Positions 37,094-45,797 are shown, numbered from the stretch's first letter. The stretch: 46,822 nucleotides of DNA from Candidatus Limnocylindria bacterium (GCA_046261895.1 JBHENV010000116.1:1-46822), one strand, 5' to 3'. A program made the numbers and translations. Notes: generated by a model from the sequence alone, not told the origin.

Positions 37094-38062
37094 ATGCGCG
37101 CCTCACGACTCGTTCAGCTGCTCCTGTTCCTCCAGGCGCGCGGACGCACGACGGCGCTGGTCCTGGCTCGTGAGCTCGAGGTTTCCGAGCGGACGATCCA
37201 TCGTGACGTCGACGCGCTGAGCGCTGCCGGCGTACCGATCTACGCCGAGCGCGGACCGCATGGCGGCATCCAGCTCATCGACGGCTACCGCACCCGCCTG
37301 ACCGGCCTCACCGGGCCCGAGGCGGAGGCGCTCTTCCTCTCGGGCCTGCCGGGACCGGCGGCGGAGCTCGGGCTCGGCACAGTCATGGCGGCTGCCCGGC
37401 TCAAGGTGCTGGCCGCGCTCCCGGCCGAGCTGCGGGTGCGCGCCTCTCGGCTGGTGGAGCGCTTTCACCTCGACGTTGCCGGCTGGTTTCGCGTCAGCGA
37501 GGAGGTGCCGCAGCTCGCCACGCTCGCCGATGCGGTCTGGGAGTCGAGACGCCTCGCGATTACCTATCGCCGCGGGGATCGTGCCGTCGAACGCATCGTC
37601 GACCCGCTCGGCCTGGTCCTGAAGGCCGGCGTCTGGTACCTGGTGGCGGCCGCTGATAAGCAGATCCGAACGTATCGCGTCTCGCGCGTGGAGAGCGTGA
37701 CCTCGACCCCGGAACCGATGACGCGACCGCCCGACTTTGACCTCGCCGCCTACTGGGCCGATTCCATCAGCGCCTATGAGCGCGAGTCGCCGCGGATCAC
37801 GGTCACCATCCGGGTCGATCCGGCCGTCATCGGCGTCCTGGCCGATGCGATCGGCAGCCAGGCCGTCCGTGCGGCCGAGACGGTTCCCGCCGATGATGCG
37901 GACGGATGGCTCCACCTGCGGATCACGGCGGAGTGGCCCGACGAGGTCCCCGGGCGCCTCATCGGCCTGGGCGGCCGCGCCGAGATTCTGGAACCGCCGG
38001 AGATTCGCGAGCGGGCCATCAACATCGCGCGCCGCATGCTCGAGCGCCACGGCGCTCGCTAG
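37094..38062 (+). CDS. YafY-type transcriptional regulator (HTH + WYL + WCX domains)
   Basis: N-terminus MRASRLVQLLLFLQARGRTTALVLARELEVSERTIHRDVDALSAAGVPIYAERGPHGG. Central WYL-like region AITYRRGD....R.VDPLGLV.KAGVWYLVA. Confidence 0.85.
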   Translation: MRASRLVQLLLFLQARGRTTALVLARELEVSERTIHRDVDALSAAGVPIYAERGPHGGIQLIDGYRTRLTGLTGPEAEALFLSGLPGPAAELGLGTVMAAARLKVLAALPAELRVRASRLVERFHLDVAGWFRVSEEVPQLATLADAVWESRRLAITYRRGDRAVERIVDPLGLVLKAGVWYLVAAADKQIRTYRVSRVESVTSTPEPMTRPPDFDLAAYWADSISAYERESPRITVTIRVDPAVIGVLADAIGSQAVRAAETVPADDADGWLHLRITAEWPDEVPGRLIGLGGRAEILEPPEIRERAINIARRMLERHGAR

Positions 38063-41018: not shown

Positions 41019-41650
41019 CGAGCGGAACCGGCCAGCGATTCGGTCAGCGCGTCGTTCGCATCGTCGTACAGGACGCAGATGAACGAGCGGTCGCCCGCCG
41101 CCCAGGAATCTTCGGATGGGCTGATCATCGATGCCCCAATCGCAGACTCCTCCCACGCAGCGCCGACGTACGGCTCGAACTTTGGCTCGCAGACCTCGAA
41201 GAAGATCGGCTCAAGCTCGGCGTCGGAGGGAAAGGTGGCAGCGCCCTCGTGCGTGGCCAGCGCGAAGACCTCGTACTCGTGGGGCTCCGAGCACGGGACA
41301 CCGGCGACCTCGGTGATCTCCTCCTGCTCGCCGCCGTTGAAGCAGTCACCCTCGCGCAGCTCGTCGACGGAGACGCTGCCGGCAGATGCCAACGAGCCGG
41401 CGTCGTCACGCCGCGCCGACGTGAGGTATCCGACGGCCAGCGCGACGAGCAACGCGGGGATCCACCAGAACCGGATCCATCGTCGCCAGGCCGGCCGCTC
41501 GGCGACCACCACGGCCCCGCCATGCGCCTCCCAGGCCACCTGGTCTGATGGCGTCGACTCGGCACCTCGCGTCAGGCCACAGTTGCGGCAGGCCGCATCG
41601 GTCTCTTCGTTGTCCGCGAAGCAGCGCTTGCAGACCCATCGTTCGCTCAC
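41015..41650 (-). CDS. zinc-ribbon / TM / septum-formation-family domain protein
   Basis: N-terminus WVCKRCFADNEETDAACRNCG (a CxxC...CxxC ribbon). TM segment WIRFWWIPALLVALAVGYL. The C-domain with GDCF...VPCSEPHEYEVF...FICVL resembles the actinobacterial Septum_form family. Confidence 0.6.
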   Translation of the reverse strand: MSERWVCKRCFADNEETDAACRNCGLTRGAESTPSDQVAWEAHGGAVVVAERPAWRRWIRFWWIPALLVALAVGYLTSARRDDAGSLASAGSVSVDELREGDCFNGGEQEEITEVAGVPCSEPHEYEVFALATHEGAATFPSDAELEPIFFEVCEPKFEPYVGAAWEESAIGASMISPSEDSWAAGDRSFICVLYDDANDALTESLAGSAR

Positions 41651-42234
41651 GGCGAGACCTTAGCCGGTCCTGGGCGGCAGCCGATCCAGTACGTTCGGAC
41701 GAACTCCTGCTGGGACGGGGTCTCGACCGCAGTCGGATGACGGACATCCCTGACCCGGGCGATAGCCGCATCCGGGCCCCAGCCGGCGAGCACCAGCGCG
41801 CAGGCCGCCACGGTACCGGTCCGTCCGACCCCGCCCATGCACGCCACCGCGGCATTCGAGCAGGATCGAGCCGATGCCAGCGACCTGAGGATCGCATCCA
41901 TCGCGGCCGGACTGGCCGGCGGAGAGCCATCCGGCATCGGGTATCTCTCGATCCGGATGCCCGCCTCGGCCGCGCGCTCGACGATGGCTCCGTCACTCCA
42001 GCGGGCGAGCTCGTCGTCGTCCACTAGGAGCAGCAGACGGTCGACCCCCGCCAGACGCAGCGCACGCAGATCCGCCCCCAGGTCGGCCCGATACACGCGC
42101 CCGGGGTAGCGCTGCGACGCGCCATGCTTCCCGGGCAGCACGGTCATTCCGAGGCTGCCGGGACGCCCATCCGCGAAGTCGCTCGCCGGCACCCAATCGA
42201 TGCTCAGGGGTGGATCGTGAGCGGCAGCGCTCAC
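41647..42234 (-). CDS. protein-tyrosine/dual-specificity phosphatase-like protein
   Basis: The CX5R P-loop is VACMGGVGRTGT, with a preceding candidate general-acid region PMPDG. 195 aa. It starts 1 nt after the DUF3090 stop. Confidence 0.75.
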   Translation of the reverse strand: MSAAAHDPPLSIDWVPASDFADGRPGSLGMTVLPGKHGASQRYPGRVYRADLGADLRALRLAGVDRLLLLVDDDELARWSDGAIVERAAEAGIRIERYPMPDGSPPASPAAMDAILRSLASARSCSNAAVACMGGVGRTGTVAACALVLAGWGPDAAIARVRDVRHPTAVETPSQQEFVRTYWIGCRPGPAKVSP

Positions 42235-42235
42235 C

Positions 42236-42763
42236 CTAGTTCAGCTGGCCGTTGCCACGTGAGCAGAAGTGACCCTGCGGATCCAGCGGTTGCCCGCAGA
42301 ACGGACAGGCCGGGCGGCCGGCGGAGATCAGCGCCTCGGCACGCCGAATGAAGCCGCGCGCTGTGGGCGCATCGATGCGAACGCGAAGGAGATCCGGTCC
42401 TTCCTCCGCGTCGTCGGGAAGCTCGACGTAGTCGCCGTCCTCGGTCGGCGTCTGCGCCTCGATGACGACCGCTCCTGCACCGGCGTCCCACGCCAGTGCC
42501 ATGGCTCCCACCCGGAACAGTTCCACGACCGGCGCCTCGAGGGTGAGCTCGTCGGGCATCTCCTGCGTCGCCGGCGCATCGACGGCATCGAGCAGATCCT
42601 CCAGCCGCTGGGCGAGCGCTGCCACCTGGGCCTTCTCGAGGCCCACGCTGATCAGGGCGGCACCCTTTCGCGCCTGGAGGAAGAAGGCGCGATCGCCCGG
42701 CTCGCCGACCGTGCCGGCCAGAAACCGGTCGGGATTGTCGAACATGAAGAGCCGGCGTGTCAT
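42236..42763 (-). CDS. DUF3090 domain-containing protein
   Basis: 175 aa from ATG 42763: F.NPDRF.AGTVGEPG.R.FFLQAR.G....SV.LEK.QV..LA.RL..LL, and C-terminal AGRP.CPFCG.PLDP.GH.C.R.NG. Confidence 0.85.
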   Translation of the reverse strand: MTRRLFMFDNPDRFLAGTVGEPGDRAFFLQARKGAALISVGLEKAQVAALAQRLEDLLDAVDAPATQEMPDELTLEAPVVELFRVGAMALAWDAGAGAVVIEAQTPTEDGDYVELPDDAEEGPDLLRVRIDAPTARGFIRRAEALISAGRPACPFCGQPLDPQGHFCSRGNGQLN

Positions 42764-42845: not shown

Positions 42846-43439
42846 ATGCGAGAGCGTCTCCGACCCCTCCGCAGACGGCCCATGGCCCGTGGACCGGGCG
42901 ACGATGAGGCGTTCACACTCTCGCCACGGGCCAGGTGGATCGGTGGCTGGCTCGCCGCAGCCCTTCTTGTCCTGGCGATCGCGGTCGTCTTTCGCGTGCT
43001 CGGCGGCAACGGGGACGGAACCGTGGTGGCACCCTCGCCCTCCGGGTCGGGCACGCCATCCGCGACCGCGATCACGTTCGGGACGGCGCTCGACACCGCC
43101 ACCGGCGAGGTGGCGGCCGACGCTCGCGGCAACCGCTTCGACGATGGCGACACCTTCGCCTATTCCGTGCCGCCCGCCGGCACCGTGCCGCCCACGGTGT
43201 ACGTCGAAGTGCTGACCGCGGGTGCCGAGTCCGTCGAGACGCTCCAGGAGCCCGTCGGCCGCCAGCCGCTGTCGAATCCGGACGTCATCGCCTTCACGGT
43301 GCCCGCCGCGGACCTTCTGGCGGTCTTCGGCCCCGGCGAGTACCTGATGCGCATCTATGCGGACCCGGAGGGCGACCCGATTGCGGAGGGAAAGTTCGAG
43401 CTGGTCGGCGCCACGGTCAGTCCAGCCGCCACCCCTTAG
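42846..43439 (+). CDS. membrane-anchored hypothetical protein
   Basis: One TM segment (WIGGWLAAALLVLAIAVVF), then a soluble domain of about 140 aa. No family recognised. An alternative start is ATG 42882. Confidence 0.5.
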   Translation: MRERLRPLRRRPMARGPGDDEAFTLSPRARWIGGWLAAALLVLAIAVVFRVLGGNGDGTVVAPSPSGSGTPSATAITFGTALDTATGEVAADARGNRFDDGDTFAYSVPPAGTVPPTVYVEVLTAGAESVETLQEPVGRQPLSNPDVIAFTVPAADLLAVFGPGEYLMRIYADPEGDPIAEGKFELVGATVSPAATP

Positions 43440-43553: not shown

Positions 43554-44852
43554 TCAATTGACCGATAGCGCCTCGCTGGTGAGCTCGTATGCTCCGCGAT
43601 GGTTTCCTGCTTCGGCACGCAGGTCGGCCCACTCGCGCAGCACCTCGCGGAGCCGGGTCGGAACCCGGCTTGATCGGGCAAGCCCCGCTGCCTCGGCGAA
43701 CCGCCGCTCGGCCTCCATCAACTGGCCGTCGACGCGCATGGCACGCGCCTCCGTGAGCATGGCAGCGAGGCTGGCAAGCTCGTTGCCGCTGCGCTCGGCA
43801 TAGGCGCGCGCGCTCGCCGCGAGGCGGAGCGCACCGGCGGTGTCGCCGGACGCCAGCGCGATCTGGGCTTCGGTGTCGGCGACGGCGGCGAGCCATCGCT
43901 CGTCTCCGGTGGCCTCGATCTGCTGACGTGCGTCCGTGGCCAGCTCGCGCGCACGCTCGACCTGGCCGGTCGCCAGGTAGGCCAGCGCCAGGTCGTTCTC
44001 GATCCGCGCGGACTCGAACATCGCGCCGGCAGCTCGGTAGAGCGCCATGCCCTGCGTGCCCGACCGGATGGCCGCCTCGAAGTCACCGATCTCCCGGTAG
44101 CTGATCGCCAGGTTGAAGAGGAAGGCCGCGCGACGGCGATCGTCGAGATCGGCGGCCAGACCGCGTGCCTCCTCGAGGTATGACAGAGCCCGCGGCGCCT
44201 GGCCGGCGCGTGACTCCACGGCGGCCAGCGAGGTGAGGAGGCGCATCTCGAAATCCGGCTCGACATTCAGACCGCCGCGGACCTGCACGAGCAGGGCGGT
44301 GAGGAGGCTGCGCGCATCCGGCTCGTTATCGGACTGGTACAGGCCGTACGCCAGCCAGTAGCGGGCCAGTGCAGCGTCGGCCTCGCGCGAGGCAAGGGTA
44401 TACAGGCGCGCGGACTCGGAGGCGGCCGCAACGGTCTCCTTGCCGAGATCGAGACGCGCCAACGCCTCGGCAAGGCCGCGCAACAGCTCGGCGCGCCCAC
44501 CGTCGTCGGTCACGTCCTCGAGCAGGGCGCGATAGCCGTCGGCCGCATCCTGCCAGTCCCCGGCGGCGAGCTTCATGTCGACCTCGAGCCGGGTCCAGGC
44601 GGGATGCGCCTGGTCGATGAAGTGGCTCGCCGGTAGATTAAGCCGCCCGGCGATGTGGTTGAGGGCGACCATCGAGGGGCGGGCGATGCCGGTCTCCAGT
44701 GCGCTCACGTACGCCTTGGTGTAGCGATCTCCGGCGAGCTGCTGCTGGGTGAGCCCGGCACGGTGACGAGCCTCCCGGATGCGGTGCCCGATACGCTGGG
44801 CCAGCTCCCGGTCGAGCTCTGTGGCGCGAGGACTCGTCTTTGTGCGTGGCAT
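43554..44852 (-). CDS. XRE-family HTH regulator fused to a tetratricopeptide-repeat (TPR) domain
   Basis: 432 aa from ATG 44852. N-terminus: LAQRIGHRIREARHRAGLTQQQLAGDRYTKAYVSALETGIARPSMVALNHIAGRLNL. At least 7 helical repeat units of TPR type follow (e.g. AFLFNLAISYREIGDFEAAIRSG and IENDLALAYLATGQVERARELA). Confidence 0.85.
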   Translation of the reverse strand: MPRTKTSPRATELDRELAQRIGHRIREARHRAGLTQQQLAGDRYTKAYVSALETGIARPSMVALNHIAGRLNLPASHFIDQAHPAWTRLEVDMKLAAGDWQDAADGYRALLEDVTDDGGRAELLRGLAEALARLDLGKETVAAASESARLYTLASREADAALARYWLAYGLYQSDNEPDARSLLTALLVQVRGGLNVEPDFEMRLLTSLAAVESRAGQAPRALSYLEEARGLAADLDDRRRAAFLFNLAISYREIGDFEAAIRSGTQGMALYRAAGAMFESARIENDLALAYLATGQVERARELATDARQQIEATGDERWLAAVADTEAQIALASGDTAGALRLAASARAYAERSGNELASLAAMLTEARAMRVDGQLMEAERRFAEAAGLARSSRVPTRLREVLREWADLRAEAGNHRGAYELTSEALSVN

Positions 44853-44859
44853 TGCCGCG

Positions 44860-44894
44860 AGTCTACACCCCCGTCGGCAAGCGTCAATTGACCG
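44860..44894. promoter_or_regulatory. divergent promoter core with 8-bp palindrome TCAATTGA
   Basis: Minus strand: TTGACG (44887-44882), 16 nt, TAGACT (44865-44860), then 7 nt to the regulator ATG, suggesting a leaderless transcript. Plus strand: TTGACC (44888-44893). The two -35-like hexamers overlap inside the palindrome at 44884-44891. Confidence 0.45.
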
Positions 44895-45032
44895 CGATCT
44901 ACCCCAATCGTACTCCGGTCCCCCGTCCGGCCGGGACCGACGGGCCATTGCTCACCGGTCCGATCGGGGTGACTGTGACCGCTGCGCGACGCCCCGAGGA
45001 CGGGGAGGGCGCTTTCAGTCAAGGAGAGACCC

Positions 45033-45164
45033 ATGCGAACCAAGCAACTTCTGCGCACCCTGGCGGTCGCCGGTACGGCGGCGGCGCTCAGCATCCTCAG
45101 CCTCGTTTCGACCGTCGCGGCCGTCACGGGAGGCGGCGACTTCCCCCGCTTCTGGATGCGCTGA
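45033..45164 (+). CDS. 43-codon ORF encoding a Sec-signal-peptide-like pre-peptide (not in the ORF track)
   Basis: AAGGAG at 45021-45026 lies 6 nt before ATG 45033. Sequence: MRTKQLLRTLAVAGTAAALSILSLVSTVAAVTGGGDFPRFWMR*. It has a basic n-region, a hydrophobic core, a small-residue VAA site, then a 13-residue tail. Third positions are mostly G/C. Confidence 0.5.
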   Translation: MRTKQLLRTLAVAGTAAALSILSLVSTVAAVTGGGDFPRFWMR

Positions 45165-45203: not shown

Positions 45204-45797
45204 TCAGTGCCCGTGCTGGTAGTACGGGTTCTGGCCTGCCTGGTGATCGGTGACGTCAACGATCGCGGTGACCGATGGGACGGCGTTCCGGATGGCCGTC
45301 TCCACGCCCTGGCGCAGCGTGACGTCCACGGCCGAGCAGCCCTGGCACCCGCCACCGAACCGCATGAACGCGGTGCCGTCCCTCACGTCGACCAGCGTCA
45401 CCTGCCCGCCGTGTGAGCCGACGCCCGGATTGATCTGCCGATCGATCACCTCCTGCACCGCACGGGCGACCGGGTCCTGCCACCCCTCGTTGGGATTCTC
45501 GATGCGCAGGCCACCCCCGGTCACCGCCTGGTCGAGCTCGATCGTCGCCCCGGCGAGGTCCGTGGCGCTGTCGGCGTCGACCACGATCGTCAGGCCTTCG
45601 GACTCGACCGCCAGGTCGCCGTCCCCCGCCTCGCGTGGATCCTCGAGGGCGATTTCGTAGCGGAACCGGGGTCCGTCCTTGGCCAGGACGCGCACGCGCA
45701 GAACGGCCTCCGGGAACTCGTTGAAGGTGCGGACGCCGTCGATCTTCGTCCGGGCGTCAGGGGTGATGGTGAGCAGCTGGTCGATCATCGGCGCCAT
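45204..45797 (-). CDS. NfuA-like Fe-S cluster carrier (degenerate A-type N-domain + Nfu C-domain)
   Basis: C-terminal INPGVGSHGGQVTLVDVRDGTAFMRFGGGCQGCSAVDVTLRQGVE carries the Nfu CxxC motif. The N-terminal HesB/IscA-like fold lacks the Cys ligands. Confidence 0.85.
   Translation of the reverse strand: MAPMIDQLLTITPDARTKIDGVRTFNEFPEAVLRVRVLAKDGPRFRYEIALEDPREAGDGDLAVESEGLTIVVDADSATDLAGATIELDQAVTGGGLRIENPNEGWQDPVARAVQEVIDRQINPGVGSHGGQVTLVDVRDGTAFMRFGGGCQGCSAVDVTLRQGVETAIRNAVPSVTAIVDVTDHQAGQNPYYQHGH

Follow-up and report, generated by a model that had tools for sequence, protein, structure and literature searches.

Regulator and small gene at the locus

We analysed a stretch of 46,822 nucleotides from Candidatus Limnocylindria bacterium (GCA_046261895.1 JBHENV010000116.1:1-46822), hereafter the window, in which a regulator gene and a very small gene sit back-to-back, with 180 nt between their start codons (Table 1). 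The regulator's reading frame starts at the ATG at 44852 within an ORF that spans 43554..44948 (-), and all close homologues are, like it, 432 residues long. The encoded protein carries an XRE-type HTH at its N terminus, followed by TPR-like repeats, and shows no export signal. The small ORF on the other strand encodes MRTKQLLRTLAVAGTAAALSILSLVSTVAAVTGGGDFPRFWMR. The original prediction, which was made from the sequence alone, was therefore confirmed as an observation, although it described the ORF as unannotated, whereas its exact sequence is deposited as hypothetical protein ABR593_04990. The palindrome reported in the shared promoter region, which had been given as 8 bp, is also present but is 10 bp long.

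Table 1. Features of the regulator and small-ORF locus; positions are counted from the first nucleotide of the window.
Position	Strand	Feature	Support
43554..44852	-	Regulator gene, 432 aa plus stop codon; XRE-type HTH followed by a TPR-like superhelix	ORF list; AlphaFold2 model, mean pLDDT 89
44637..44792	-	HTH DNA-binding domain, residues 21-72	Pfam HTH_31, E 7.7e-8; best solved-structure sequence match is the PlcR HTH, E 5.8e-6 (single sequence) and 9.7e-9 (profile)
43563..44591	-	TPR-like repeat domain, residues 88-430; proposed ligand-binding part	18 helices, about nine TPR-like pairs, in the AlphaFold2 model; Pfam TPR_12 at residues 204-274, E 1.2e-10, plus weaker TPR hits
44860..44887	-	Predicted regulator promoter, TTGACG-16 nt-TAGACT; the ATG follows the -10 hexamer by 7 nt, so the mRNA is probably leaderless	Promoter scan found 1 site against 0.0 expected; TAnACT lies 7-8 nt before the ATG in all aligned orthologues
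44876..44893	-	Conserved box GGTCAA-N5-GCTTGCC, candidate operator	GGTCAA and GCTTGCC invariant or nearly so across both peptide clades; only exact match in the window
44883-44892		Window-specific palindrome GTCAATTGAC, within the box above	The base that would complete the palindrome varies among relatives
44888..44916	+	Candidate promoter of the small ORF (inferred), TTGACC-17 nt-TACTCC, weak -10	TTGACC and GTAC invariant in the alignments; 17-nt spacing also holds in loci L001 and L070, read from the alignments; not called by the consensus promoter scan
44934..44951	-	Conserved box (A/G)CAATG(A/G)CCC-N3-GGT(A/C)C in the presumed 5' untranslated region of the small ORF	CAAT, CC and GT invariant across 25 loci from both clades; single match in the window
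44992..45005	+	Hairpin CCCCG-AGGA-CGGGG just upstream of the Shine-Dalgarno	Hairpins of differing sequence at the same position in related loci; mean z-score -1.22 against dinucleotide shuffles for 73 unique 52-nt segments
45021..45026	+	Shine-Dalgarno AAGGAG, 6 nt before the ATG	GGAG-type motif kept in front of both long and short forms
45033..45164	+	Small gene, 43 aa plus stop codon; proposed pro-peptide	Conserved in 87 of 87 loci
45033..45122	+	Residues 1-30: basic N terminus (MRTKQLLR, +3), then a 22-residue hydrophobic stretch ending V-A-A; either a signal peptide or a membrane anchor	Heuristic features only; absent from the 12-codon forms
45126..45149	+	Residues 32-39, TGGGDFPR: conserved core of the peptide	Mean entropy 0.40 for residues 32-38, against 1.24 for the basic N terminus and 0.73 for the hydrophobic part
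45150..45161	+	Residues 40-43, FWMR: C-terminal extension unique to this window	Orthologues end with 0, 1 or 3 residues after the Pro; only the window has 5
45204-45797	-	Next gene, nfuA-like, convergent with the small gene

Conservation of the small gene

A 43-codon ORF alone means nothing in DNA of 69% G+C, and we found 60 ORFs of at least 30 aa in 5.8 kb of this region. We therefore asked whether the small ORF is retained next to related regulators, as the original prediction had required. It was present at the same divergent position in all 21 genome loci with upstream DNA and in all 87 regulator-peptide pairs compiled from genomes and metagenomes, that is, at every related locus with enough upstream DNA. 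It is also kept beside paralogous regulators of 50-60% identity in unrelated genomic contexts (six loci, L107, L108, and L110-L113). In five of these six the sources' own gene callers had annotated a 39-54-aa gene, while in L107 it was read from the sequence. Altogether the pair is found in at least five different genomic contexts, with a spacing of 171-215 bp in most loci and up to 423 bp in a few paralogues, and a product of 12-54 aa across the family. Roughly 2,600 members of the regulator family were seen in all.

The substitution pattern is that of a coding sequence, with an entropy of 0.92 at third codon positions against 0.33 at second positions and a median dN/dS of about 0.28. G+C by codon position is 0.65/0.58/0.86, like the other genes of the window, and the Shine-Dalgarno and start codon are conserved. 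These results rule out a chance ORF.

The most conserved part of the peptide is its C-terminal part, as had been supposed, but it is not the 13-residue aromatic/basic tail that the original prediction had singled out. Instead, it is the core T-G-G-G-(D)-[F/W]-P-x. The residues between GGG and the aromatic residue differ between regulator clades (D, T, P, TI, or none), and the peptide therefore diversifies together with its receptor, although independent F/W or D/T/P switches among close relatives were too few for a meaningful test of covariation with groove residues. Invariant residues of the regulator include N286, Y252/E254, and W166.

Long and short forms of the peptide

Twenty-seven of the 87 loci, all in one orthologous subclade, have only a 12-codon ORF (for example, MRSAHTGGGWPS) that encodes a hydrophilic peptide with no hydrophobic segment. 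The core survives even though 27 codons of N-terminal sequence are missing, with the related motif T/N-G-G/S-G-W/F-P kept with synonymous changes in 18 distinct sequences. In all 27 short-form loci exactly one residue follows the Pro before the stop. A long-form gene relocated elsewhere was not found within the flanking DNA of the short-form loci that was searched. One long-form locus, L088, is nested among the short forms, a placement that rests on the topology of a neighbor-joining tree and on pairwise identities of 80% to the short-form locus L069 and 73-76% to two other short forms compared. Sec export is therefore dispensable in that subclade and is not a constant of the system, so that a purely cell-to-cell reading is not secure.

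The original prediction described the N-terminal part as a Sec-type signal peptide. Judged by heuristic features only, the net N-terminal charge is +3 or +4 in 51 of 55 unique long forms, and the long forms have a hydrophobic core and small residues at -3/-1. In the orthologous clade, however, the hydrophobic core is about 22 residues, which is nearer to a membrane anchor than to a typical Sec signal peptide. The paralogues have what look like canonical signal-peptide ends (ALA followed by DSGGGPFPR, VFA followed by GGGGTIFPR), one has a 23-residue pro-region ending in WPR, and one locus carries two tandem peptide genes. A Tat signal was rejected, since the RR pair is not conserved (KR, KQ, SR, and QR variants occur), and so was a lipoprotein, since a Cys at +1 occurs in only a few lineages.

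Intergenic region and genomic setting

The original prediction proposed the palindrome as a possible operator. It is not conserved as a palindrome and coincides with two back-to-back -35-like hexamers, the regulator's own and an opposite-facing TTGACC, while only the GGTCAA and GCTTGCC elements are invariant. Searches of the window for further copies of the two conserved boxes, which might have defined a regulon, returned none beyond chance. We found no Rfam match of any weight in the intergenic region, and the whole 336-nt region is no more structured than shuffled sequences (z = -0.68). The hairpin upstream of the Shine-Dalgarno was seen by per-sequence folding, but RNAalifold on a MAFFT alignment did not recover it, giving five weak pairs and no covariation. 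No intrinsic terminator was found after the small ORF in the window.

The pair is a vertically inherited, single-copy feature of the core chromosome and not an accessory or mobile one. No relative was found among 2.9 million viral contigs, and the neighborhood is housekeeping (EF-G, aminoacyl-tRNA synthetases, IF3, L20, RuvA, MutS2, PBP1). No oligopeptide permease gene lies in the window. In the window and all orthologous loci the next gene downstream of the small ORF is convergent (nfuA-like or ligD-pol), whereas in some paralogues the ORF lies upstream of, and on the same strand as, comM-dprA, an exonuclease gene, or a histidine kinase gene.

Comparison with known receptors and peptides

The pair fits the published RRNPP signature (PMC10075063) for the size of the small product (10-100 aa), the size of the receptor (250-500 aa), the presence of TPRs, and the adjacency of the two genes (-60 to 400 bp). 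The signature also asks for export of the pro-peptide, by a Sec signal as called by SignalP or by the PptAB route for SHP/PrgQ types; here the long forms show signal-peptide-like heuristic features but an anchor-like core of about 22 residues, and 27 of 87 loci have no hydrophobic segment at all. Full-length sequence or structural homology to a validated receptor subfamily (Rap, Rgg, NprR, PlcR, PrgX, AimR, ComR, and others) was not found. Sequence matches to PlcR and, weakly, to ComR cover only the HTH, about 62 residues, and the repeat domain gave weak profile matches to RapH (about 90 residues, E 8.6e-5) and RapJ (0.015). The predicted TPR fold is generic and matches eukaryotic LGN/Pins and kinesin light chain better than PlcR or Rap. 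In a Foldseek search, LGN/Pins TPR domains ranked first, at TM 0.6-0.7, with PlcR at rank 25 (TM 0.36/0.53) and RapF at rank 50, and kinesin light chain TPRs were among the best profile matches. These best structural neighbors were solved in complex with partner proteins or peptides (LGN/Pins with Inscuteable, NuMA, and Frmpd). Both LGN/Pins and kinesin light chain bind short extended peptide motifs in the concave groove, Trp-acidic motifs in the case of kinesin light chain, but they are eukaryotic scaffold proteins with no HTH, and the resemblance reflects a shared canonical TPR_12-type geometry, not a shared function.

Among HTH-plus-TPR proteins the best structural hit was PlcR-PapR7-DNA (3u3w). 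As in PlcR-PapR of the Bacillus cereus group, the receptor here is an XRE-type HTH followed by TPRs, and the adjacent gene encodes a product with a basic, hydrophobic N terminus; in PapR the active part lies at the C terminus, where the conserved core lies here. However, PlcR has five TPRs in 285 aa against about nine in 432 aa here, papR lies downstream on the same strand, and the core here is Gly-rich and conserved across a whole class of Chloroflexota. In the Rgg-SHP and ComR-ComS systems of streptococci the two genes are divergent, and the precursors are very short and lack a Sec signal (PMC10075063). ComS can act inside the producing cell (PMC6211226), which parallels the 12-codon forms, and some paralogous pairs here lie upstream of comM-dprA, with no link to competence shown. 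SHP and XIP, in contrast, are hydrophobic and leave the cell through PptAB, whereas the 12-mers here are hydrophilic, and there is no detectable homology in the repeat domain. The NprR-NprX and Rap-Phr systems of Bacillus are comparable in repeat number (seven to nine TPRs) and receptor size, and their short, hydrophilic peptides derive from the C-terminal end of a Sec-exported pro-peptide of about 40 aa, as is inferred here for the long forms. Rap proteins lack an HTH, phr genes follow rap on the same strand, and those systems are accessory, fast-evolving, and often on mobile elements. Ribosome-arrest and leader peptides (SecM, TnaC, Erm/Cat leaders) share a short ORF with a conserved C-terminal motif that contains an essential Pro and an N-terminal part that is free to vary, but they control a gene downstream on the same transcript and have no dedicated TPR regulator partner.

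Interpretation

The original prediction, a cognate receptor and pro-peptide pair of the RNPP/Rgg type in a GC-rich lineage, is partly supported. Our preferred explanation, which we hold at about even odds, is that the two genes form a cognate peptide-ligand/receptor module that works like the RRNPP systems of Firmicutes. In this view, the cytoplasmic regulator, probably made from a leaderless mRNA, would bind the shared 180-bp control region through its HTH, and the small gene would be transcribed divergently from a weak promoter. In the window's clade the product would be a 39-43-aa pro-peptide that is exported and cut after V-(A/M)-A, releasing a peptide of about 9-13 residues, VTGGGDFPR(FWMR). 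The core TGGGDFP would then be reimported and bind the concave face of the TPR superhelix, changing the regulator's activity on its own locus and on further genes. In the sister subclade the same core would be made as a 12-residue leaderless peptide that acts inside the producing cell or leaves by another route. Our analysis shows that both genes are real, that they are always linked in the loci examined, and that the conserved part of the peptide is its C-terminal core. The promoters and the leaderless start are inferred from sequence, as are export and cleavage, while DNA binding at the control region, reimport, peptide binding to the TPR domain, and the switching of the receptor, which in RRNPP systems goes with a response that depends on cell density, are likewise inferred. 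The class-wide conservation of the core, unlike the fast-diverging pherotypes of many Firmicute systems, also counts against this explanation, as do the short forms, in which secretion is not required for whatever is selected, the anchor-like length of the hydrophobic core, the generic TPR fold with sequence similarity to RRNPP receptors limited to the HTH, the lack of an oligopeptide permease gene and of a second operator-like site in the window, and the core-chromosomal setting of the pair with its absence from viral contigs.

The strongest alternative, which we consider possible but unlikely, is a cell-autonomous partner: the peptide binds the regulator, or is needed for its control, without serving cell-to-cell communication, as a cytosolic micro-peptide closing a private feedback loop in the 12-codon clade and with the hydrophobic segment as an uncleaved membrane anchor in the window's clade. 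The conserved short forms, the nested L088, the length of the hydrophobic core, the class-wide core in a single-copy core-genome pair, and the intracellular signaling of ComS all fit this alternative. On the other hand, the positive-inside rule would put the conserved tail of an anchored long form outside the cell, away from a cytoplasmic regulator, and the paralogues have what look like textbook A-x-A cleavage sites, one with the long pro-region typical of exported pro-peptides. It is less likely still that the small gene is only a target of the regulator, encoding a secreted or membrane peptide with its own function while the TPR domain senses another protein or a small molecule. Divergent regulator-target pairs are common, TPR domains bind many kinds of partner, and nothing here shows binding, but the strict co-inheritance across paralogues and the clade-by-clade change of the core with the regulator speak against it, and a 12-residue hydrophilic peptide with a conserved 6-residue core has little scope for an independent function.

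We regard a cis-acting mini-ORF, whose nascent chain would stall the ribosome as SecM, TnaC, or the antibiotic-sensing leader peptides do, as improbable. In that case translation of the ORF, not the free peptide, would be the regulated event. Conservation confined to the last 7-8 residues with an invariant Pro, an N-terminal part free to vary even in length, the single residue after the Pro in the short forms, and the same-strand downstream genes of some paralogues would fit, but in the window and all orthologues there is nothing downstream to control, the distance from the Pro to the stop varies (0, 1, 3, or 5 residues), no terminator or alternative structure was detected after the ORF, and the invariable TPR regulator partner is not explained. 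A RiPP-like precursor of a modified peptide or cofactor, with the regulator controlling its production, is very unlikely. A very short precursor with a conserved C-terminal core resembles those of the PqqA or MftA type, but the neighbors differ between contexts (ligD-pol, nfuA-like, DUF3090, comM, a histidine kinase, an exonuclease) and include no conserved modifying enzyme such as a radical-SAM or cyclodehydratase.

Genetically encoded peptide signals read by cytoplasmic HTH-TPR receptors are treated as a hallmark of Firmicutes and their mobile elements (PMC10075063), and no report of such a system in Chloroflexota was found in the literature searched. It is possible, though we put this somewhat below even odds, that the pair represents the first family of functionally RRNPP-like signaling outside Bacillota, vertically inherited across the class Limnocylindria and using the Gly-rich core TGGG(D)[F/W]P. 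Lineages appear to have switched from an exported pro-peptide to a 12-residue leaderless peptide, most likely more than once, which would be an evolutionary privatization of a communication signal caught in closely related genomes.

Limnocylindria are abundant, essentially uncultured soil and freshwater bacteria. If our reading is right, a class-wide, single-copy receptor-peptide module would give a concrete handle on their physiology, with a synthetic 8-12-mer to add and a 180-bp control region to read out, and would extend this signaling logic to a distant phylum. The coexistence of signal-peptide-like and leaderless versions of one peptide in sister lineages would be a natural experiment on how secreted signals become private, or the reverse. 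If the peptide turns out instead to be a cis-acting mini-ORF or only a target gene, the pair still defines a new conserved micro-protein family.

The regulator and the divergent small ORF

The long minus-strand ORF contains an internal ATG that gives a 432-aa protein. That start is the real one, since all of the 120 best homologues are 427-433 aa long, nearly all exactly 432, and align from residue 1, and since a sigma-70-like promoter, TTGACG-16 nt-TAGACT, places the ATG 7 nt after the -10 hexamer. The same TAnACT hexamer lies 7-8 nt before the ATG in every aligned orthologue. The regulator, which has no Shine-Dalgarno, is therefore probably translated from a leaderless mRNA. Pfam assigns HTH_31 to residues 21-72 and TPR_12 to residues 204-274, with weaker TPR hits in addition. 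An AlphaFold2 model, built on a 48-sequence alignment spanning 51-90 % identity, has a mean pLDDT of 89.2 and shows the HTH, a short linker, and then 18 helices from residue 88 to 430, forming about nine TPR-like pairs.

On the other strand, with its start 180 nt away, the small ORF encodes MRTKQLLRTLAVAGTAAALSILSLVSTVAAVTGGGDFPRFWMR, with AAGGAG 6 nt upstream of its ATG. The original prediction, an HTH/TPR regulator divergent from a 43-codon ORF behind a near-consensus Shine-Dalgarno, is thus accurate as a description of the locus. The exact sequence of the small protein is on record as hypothetical protein ABR593_04990 from Candidatus Limnocylindria bacterium, and the homologues found are named as Candidatus Limnocylindria or Chloroflexota MAGs.

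The window is core chromosome. It carries genes with EF-G, Tyr-, Phe- and Thr-tRNA synthetase, IF3, L20, RuvA, MutS2-type (MutS_V+Smr), class-A PBP-type (transglycosylase+transpeptidase) and phenylacetate-catabolism (PaaA/B/C/D) domains. The immediate neighbours are a LigD polymerase domain gene, an NfuA-like gene, a DUF3090 gene, a phosphatase gene and a septum-formation-domain gene. A 197-aa protein with one predicted N-terminal membrane span and no Pfam match lies convergent with the regulator and is kept at that position in most orthologous loci at 34-73 % identity, making it an uncharacterised lineage-specific neighbour. A PafC-like regulator gene, the DUF3090 gene and, immediately next to the latter, a dual-specificity-phosphatase-like gene also lie nearby, and these gene families are more familiar from Actinobacteria.

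Coordinates of the features in the window and in related loci (L numbers denote individual regulator-peptide loci)
Feature	Position	Strand	Remark
PafC-like regulator gene	37094-38062	+	HTH_11, WYL and WCX domains
Dual-specificity-phosphatase-like gene	41647-42234
DUF3090 gene	42236-42700	-
197-aa membrane protein gene	42846-43439	+	Convergent with the regulator
Regulator ORF	43554-44948	-	ATG at 44852; 432 aa
Regulator promoter and probable leaderless start	44850-44887	-	TTGACG-16 nt-TAGACT at 44887->44860
Conserved box	44876-44893		GGTCAA-N5-GCTTGCC
Palindrome	44883-44892		GTCAATTGAC
Conserved box	44934-44951		(A/G)CAATG(A/G)CCC-N3-GGT(A/C)C
Hairpin	44992-45005	+	Position conserved, sequence variable
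Small ORF	45033-45164	+	MRTKQLLRTLAVAGTAAALSILSLVSTVAAVTGGGDFPRFWMR
Paralogous pair, L107	2668-2790	-	Peptide gene upstream of comM-like gene, then dprA
Paralogous pair, L111	1619-1738	-	Peptide gene upstream of comM-like gene
Paralogous pair, L112	342-811	-	Two tandem peptide genes upstream of comM-like gene
Separate HTH gene, L110	1667-2047	+	126 aa; HTH_3/HTH_31

The small ORF is a conserved gene

Length alone proves nothing in DNA of 69 % G+C, but four lines of evidence show that the small ORF is a gene. All 21 species-representative genome loci with upstream DNA carry a 39-41-aa ORF at the same divergent position, with its start 172-193 nt from the regulator start (353 nt in locus L024) and preceded by a GGAG-type ribosome-binding site. 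Adding 80 metagenome loci and six loci recovered by exact protein look-up gives 87 regulator-peptide pairs, and no locus was seen that had a complete regulator and about 300 bp of upstream DNA but lacked the ORF. Many of the metagenome loci are close relatives, so that 87 of 87 overstates the number of independent observations, and because loci were found through the regulator, orphan peptides would be missed.

The substitution pattern is that of a coding sequence. Across 22 sequences, mean entropy at codon positions 1/2/3 is 0.50/0.33/0.92 and median pairwise dN/dS is 0.28, and G+C by codon position in the window's copy (0.65/0.58/0.86) matches that of the window's genes. Independent gene calls point the same way, since the sources' own gene callers annotated a small gene beside five of the six distant regulators looked up; in the sixth, L107, it was uncalled and was read from the sequence. 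Synteny is also kept, with the order LigD-pol / (NfuA-like) / small ORF / regulator / membrane protein / DUF3090 / phosphatase maintained across the class. The regulator is among the best conserved proteins of this block, at 88 % identity against 82-85 % for its neighbours in close relatives and 65-69 % against 51-67 % in distant ones. The pair is vertically inherited.

Conservation within the peptide

The last four residues of the 13-residue aromatic/basic tail named in the original prediction, FWMR, are unique to the window. Across the 87 pairs, 55 have one residue after the Pro (for example ...DFPR), 29 have three (for example ...DFPRLR), 2 have none, and only the window has five. Among 44 unique orthologous long forms, mean entropy is 1.24 for the basic N-terminus, 0.73 for the hydrophobic stretch and 0.40 for residues 32-38, TGGGDFP. 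In several lineages (the small ORFs of L001, L021, L048, L063 and L065) the residue right after the predicted cleavage site is Cys, as in ...TVMA-C-TGGGDFPR and ...TVAA-C-SNGAGWPS. This gives a lipobox-like V-x-A-C, and these variants might therefore be lipid-anchored rather than released.

Regulators that are only 50-60 % identical and sit in other genomic contexts keep the theme with clade-specific variations. With a slash at the inferred cleavage position, these are ...VVALA/DSGGGPFPR in L107, ...ALA/DSGGSPFPK and a second tandem copy ...ALA/DSGGSPFPAPG in L112, ...VVFA/GGGGTIFPR in L110, ...ALA/GSTGGPWPK in L113, and a 54-aa form, ...PVFA/EGLLDDSRAGATVDDLSTMPWPR, in L108/L109. The family signature is therefore Gly-rich, then 0-2 variable residues, then F or W, then Pro, then 0-5 residues.

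In the paralogous pairs of L107, L111 and L112, whose regulators are about 58-60 % identical, the peptide gene lies upstream of, and on the same strand as, a comM-like gene, which is followed by dprA in L107, the one locus long enough to show it. A response-regulator/ParA-like gene lies on the other side. The arrangement recalls ComRS control of competence, on gene order alone. In L110, a separate HTH gene is called immediately upstream of, and overlapping, the start of the HTH-TPR regulator, with the peptide gene 423 nt away, which may represent a duplicated HTH module.

A subclade with 12-codon ORFs

Unexpectedly, in 27 of the 87 loci, whose regulators are 64-70 % identical to the window's and sit in the same synteny, the divergent ORF starts at the same distance from the regulator (171-184 nt) and has a Shine-Dalgarno but is only 12 codons long. 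Examples are MRHASTGGGWPV, MRSAHTGGGWPS, MRDCSTGGGWPF, MQSITNGSGFPR and MRQVTNGSGFPQ. There is no hydrophobic segment and no in-frame upstream extension that could supply one, a stop codon often lies a few codons upstream, and no long form was found elsewhere within the flanking sequence examined. Codons 6-11 (T/N-G-G/S-G-W/F-P) are conserved, with synonymous changes at Gly7, Gly9 and Pro11, while residue 12 is free.

In a neighbour-joining tree of the regulators, the paralogues and the window's clade all have long forms, whereas the short forms fill one orthologous subclade, with the long forms L021 and L088 placed among them. L088 (MRT-QRILRSILVACSLAALSAMSFATAVLG-ASTGGNWP) is 80 % identical to the short-form L069 (MRT-ASCGGGWPR), against 73-76 % to the two other short forms compared, L072 and L098. 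The simplest reading is an in-frame loss of the roughly 27-codon hydrophobic part, probably more than once, although the number of losses is not firm since the tree was read without bootstrap values. Whatever selection preserves, it is the C-terminal core and its translation, not export as such.

The control region

Four elements are conserved in both clades, namely the regulator's -10 hexamer, GTAC(T)TT and the two boxes listed in the table. The window's palindrome, put forward in the original prediction as a possible operator, is not conserved as a palindrome. It is the juxtaposition of the regulator's -35 hexamer (TTGACG on the minus strand) and an opposite-facing TTGACC. That TTGACC, 17 nt on, meets a weak -10-like TACTCC, making a plausible activator-dependent promoter for the small ORF, but this assignment is inferred and a consensus promoter scan did not call it. 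No other copy of the boxes occurs in the window.

A hairpin of varying sequence but conserved position lies 15-35 nt upstream of the Shine-Dalgarno of the small ORF in most loci of both the long-form and the 12-codon clades (about 70 related loci). Over 73 unique segments, the mean z-score is -1.22 against dinucleotide shuffles. The stems differ between loci (CCCCG/CGGGG, GCGGCC/GGCCGC, GCGATC/GATCGC and CCTCACC/GGTGAGG), the hairpin is not followed by a T-run, and no Rfam family matches.

Comparison of the proposed receptor with known proteins

By sequence, the best solved structure is PlcR, but only over its HTH (E 5.8e-6 for the single sequence and 9.7e-9 for the profile), followed by ComR HTHs. 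The TPR part matches kinesin light chains (about 1e-7), RapH (8.6e-5) and RapJ (0.015). By fold, LGN/Pins TPR domains rank first, with TM scores of 0.6-0.7 normalised to the target, while PlcR-PapR7-DNA is at rank 25 and RapF at rank 50. The listed LGN/Pins entries are complexes with Inscuteable, NuMA and Frmpd proteins. These partners lie as extended peptides in the groove. The predicted domain is thus a canonical TPR superhelix of the kind that binds short linear peptides, whereas homology of the repeat domain to RRNPP receptors is not demonstrated.

The published operational signature of RRNPP systems comprises a small pro-peptide of 10-100 aa, its export, a receptor of 250-500 aa, TPRs and direct adjacency (PMC10075063). 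The pair satisfies the size, TPR and adjacency criteria. In the long forms, the hydrophobic core is about 22 residues and export is judged on sequence features alone, and the short forms lack any secretion signal. Full-length homology to a validated subfamily was not found. We therefore do not file the pair as an RRNPP member but propose that it works like one, and the original interpretation as a cognate receptor/pro-peptide pair is supported only in part. Two precedents are relevant here. Short precursors without a Sec signal exist in the Rgg/SHP and PrgX/PrgQ systems, which use PptAB export (PMC10075063), and ComS can activate ComR without leaving the cell (PMC6211226).

Proposed mechanism and alternatives

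In the reading that we favour, which we hold to be about as likely as not, the peptide core is the ligand of the TPR domain. In the window's clade it would be made as an exported pro-peptide, cut after V-A-A to VTGGGDFPR(FWMR) and re-imported, and it would modulate the regulator at the shared control region and at further targets. Our analysis establishes the pair as real and conserved, with selection centred on the C-terminal core, while export, cleavage, re-import, binding of the peptide to the TPR domain and the resulting regulation are all inferred. The same partnership could instead be cell-autonomous, with a cytosolic 12-mer or a membrane-anchored long form, which we regard as possible but unlikely.

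The remaining alternatives are weaker still. It is rather improbable that the small gene is only a target of the regulator, with the TPR domain sensing something else. A cis-acting arrest or leader ORF is attractive because conservation is limited to the C-terminal residues around an invariant Pro, but the downstream gene is convergent in all orthologues, the Pro-to-stop distance varies and the TPR partner is left unexplained, so that this reading is improbable. A precursor of a modified, RiPP-like peptide is very unlikely, as no conserved modifying enzyme lies nearby, and a phage or mobile origin is excluded as far as the data go.

Full-text searches found no report of RRNPP-type systems in Chloroflexota or Limnocylindria, although the literature covered was incomplete and this is absence of evidence only. 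The family sensu stricto is modest in size, with 118 clusters at 50 % identity and E <= 1e-30, and by the names available it is confined to this lineage. The pair is a real, conserved and previously uncharacterised regulator/mini-peptide module. With its function inferred and not shown, it is best described as a new form of cytoplasmic-receptor peptide signalling, with a striking dimorphism between forms with a putative signal peptide and leaderless forms.
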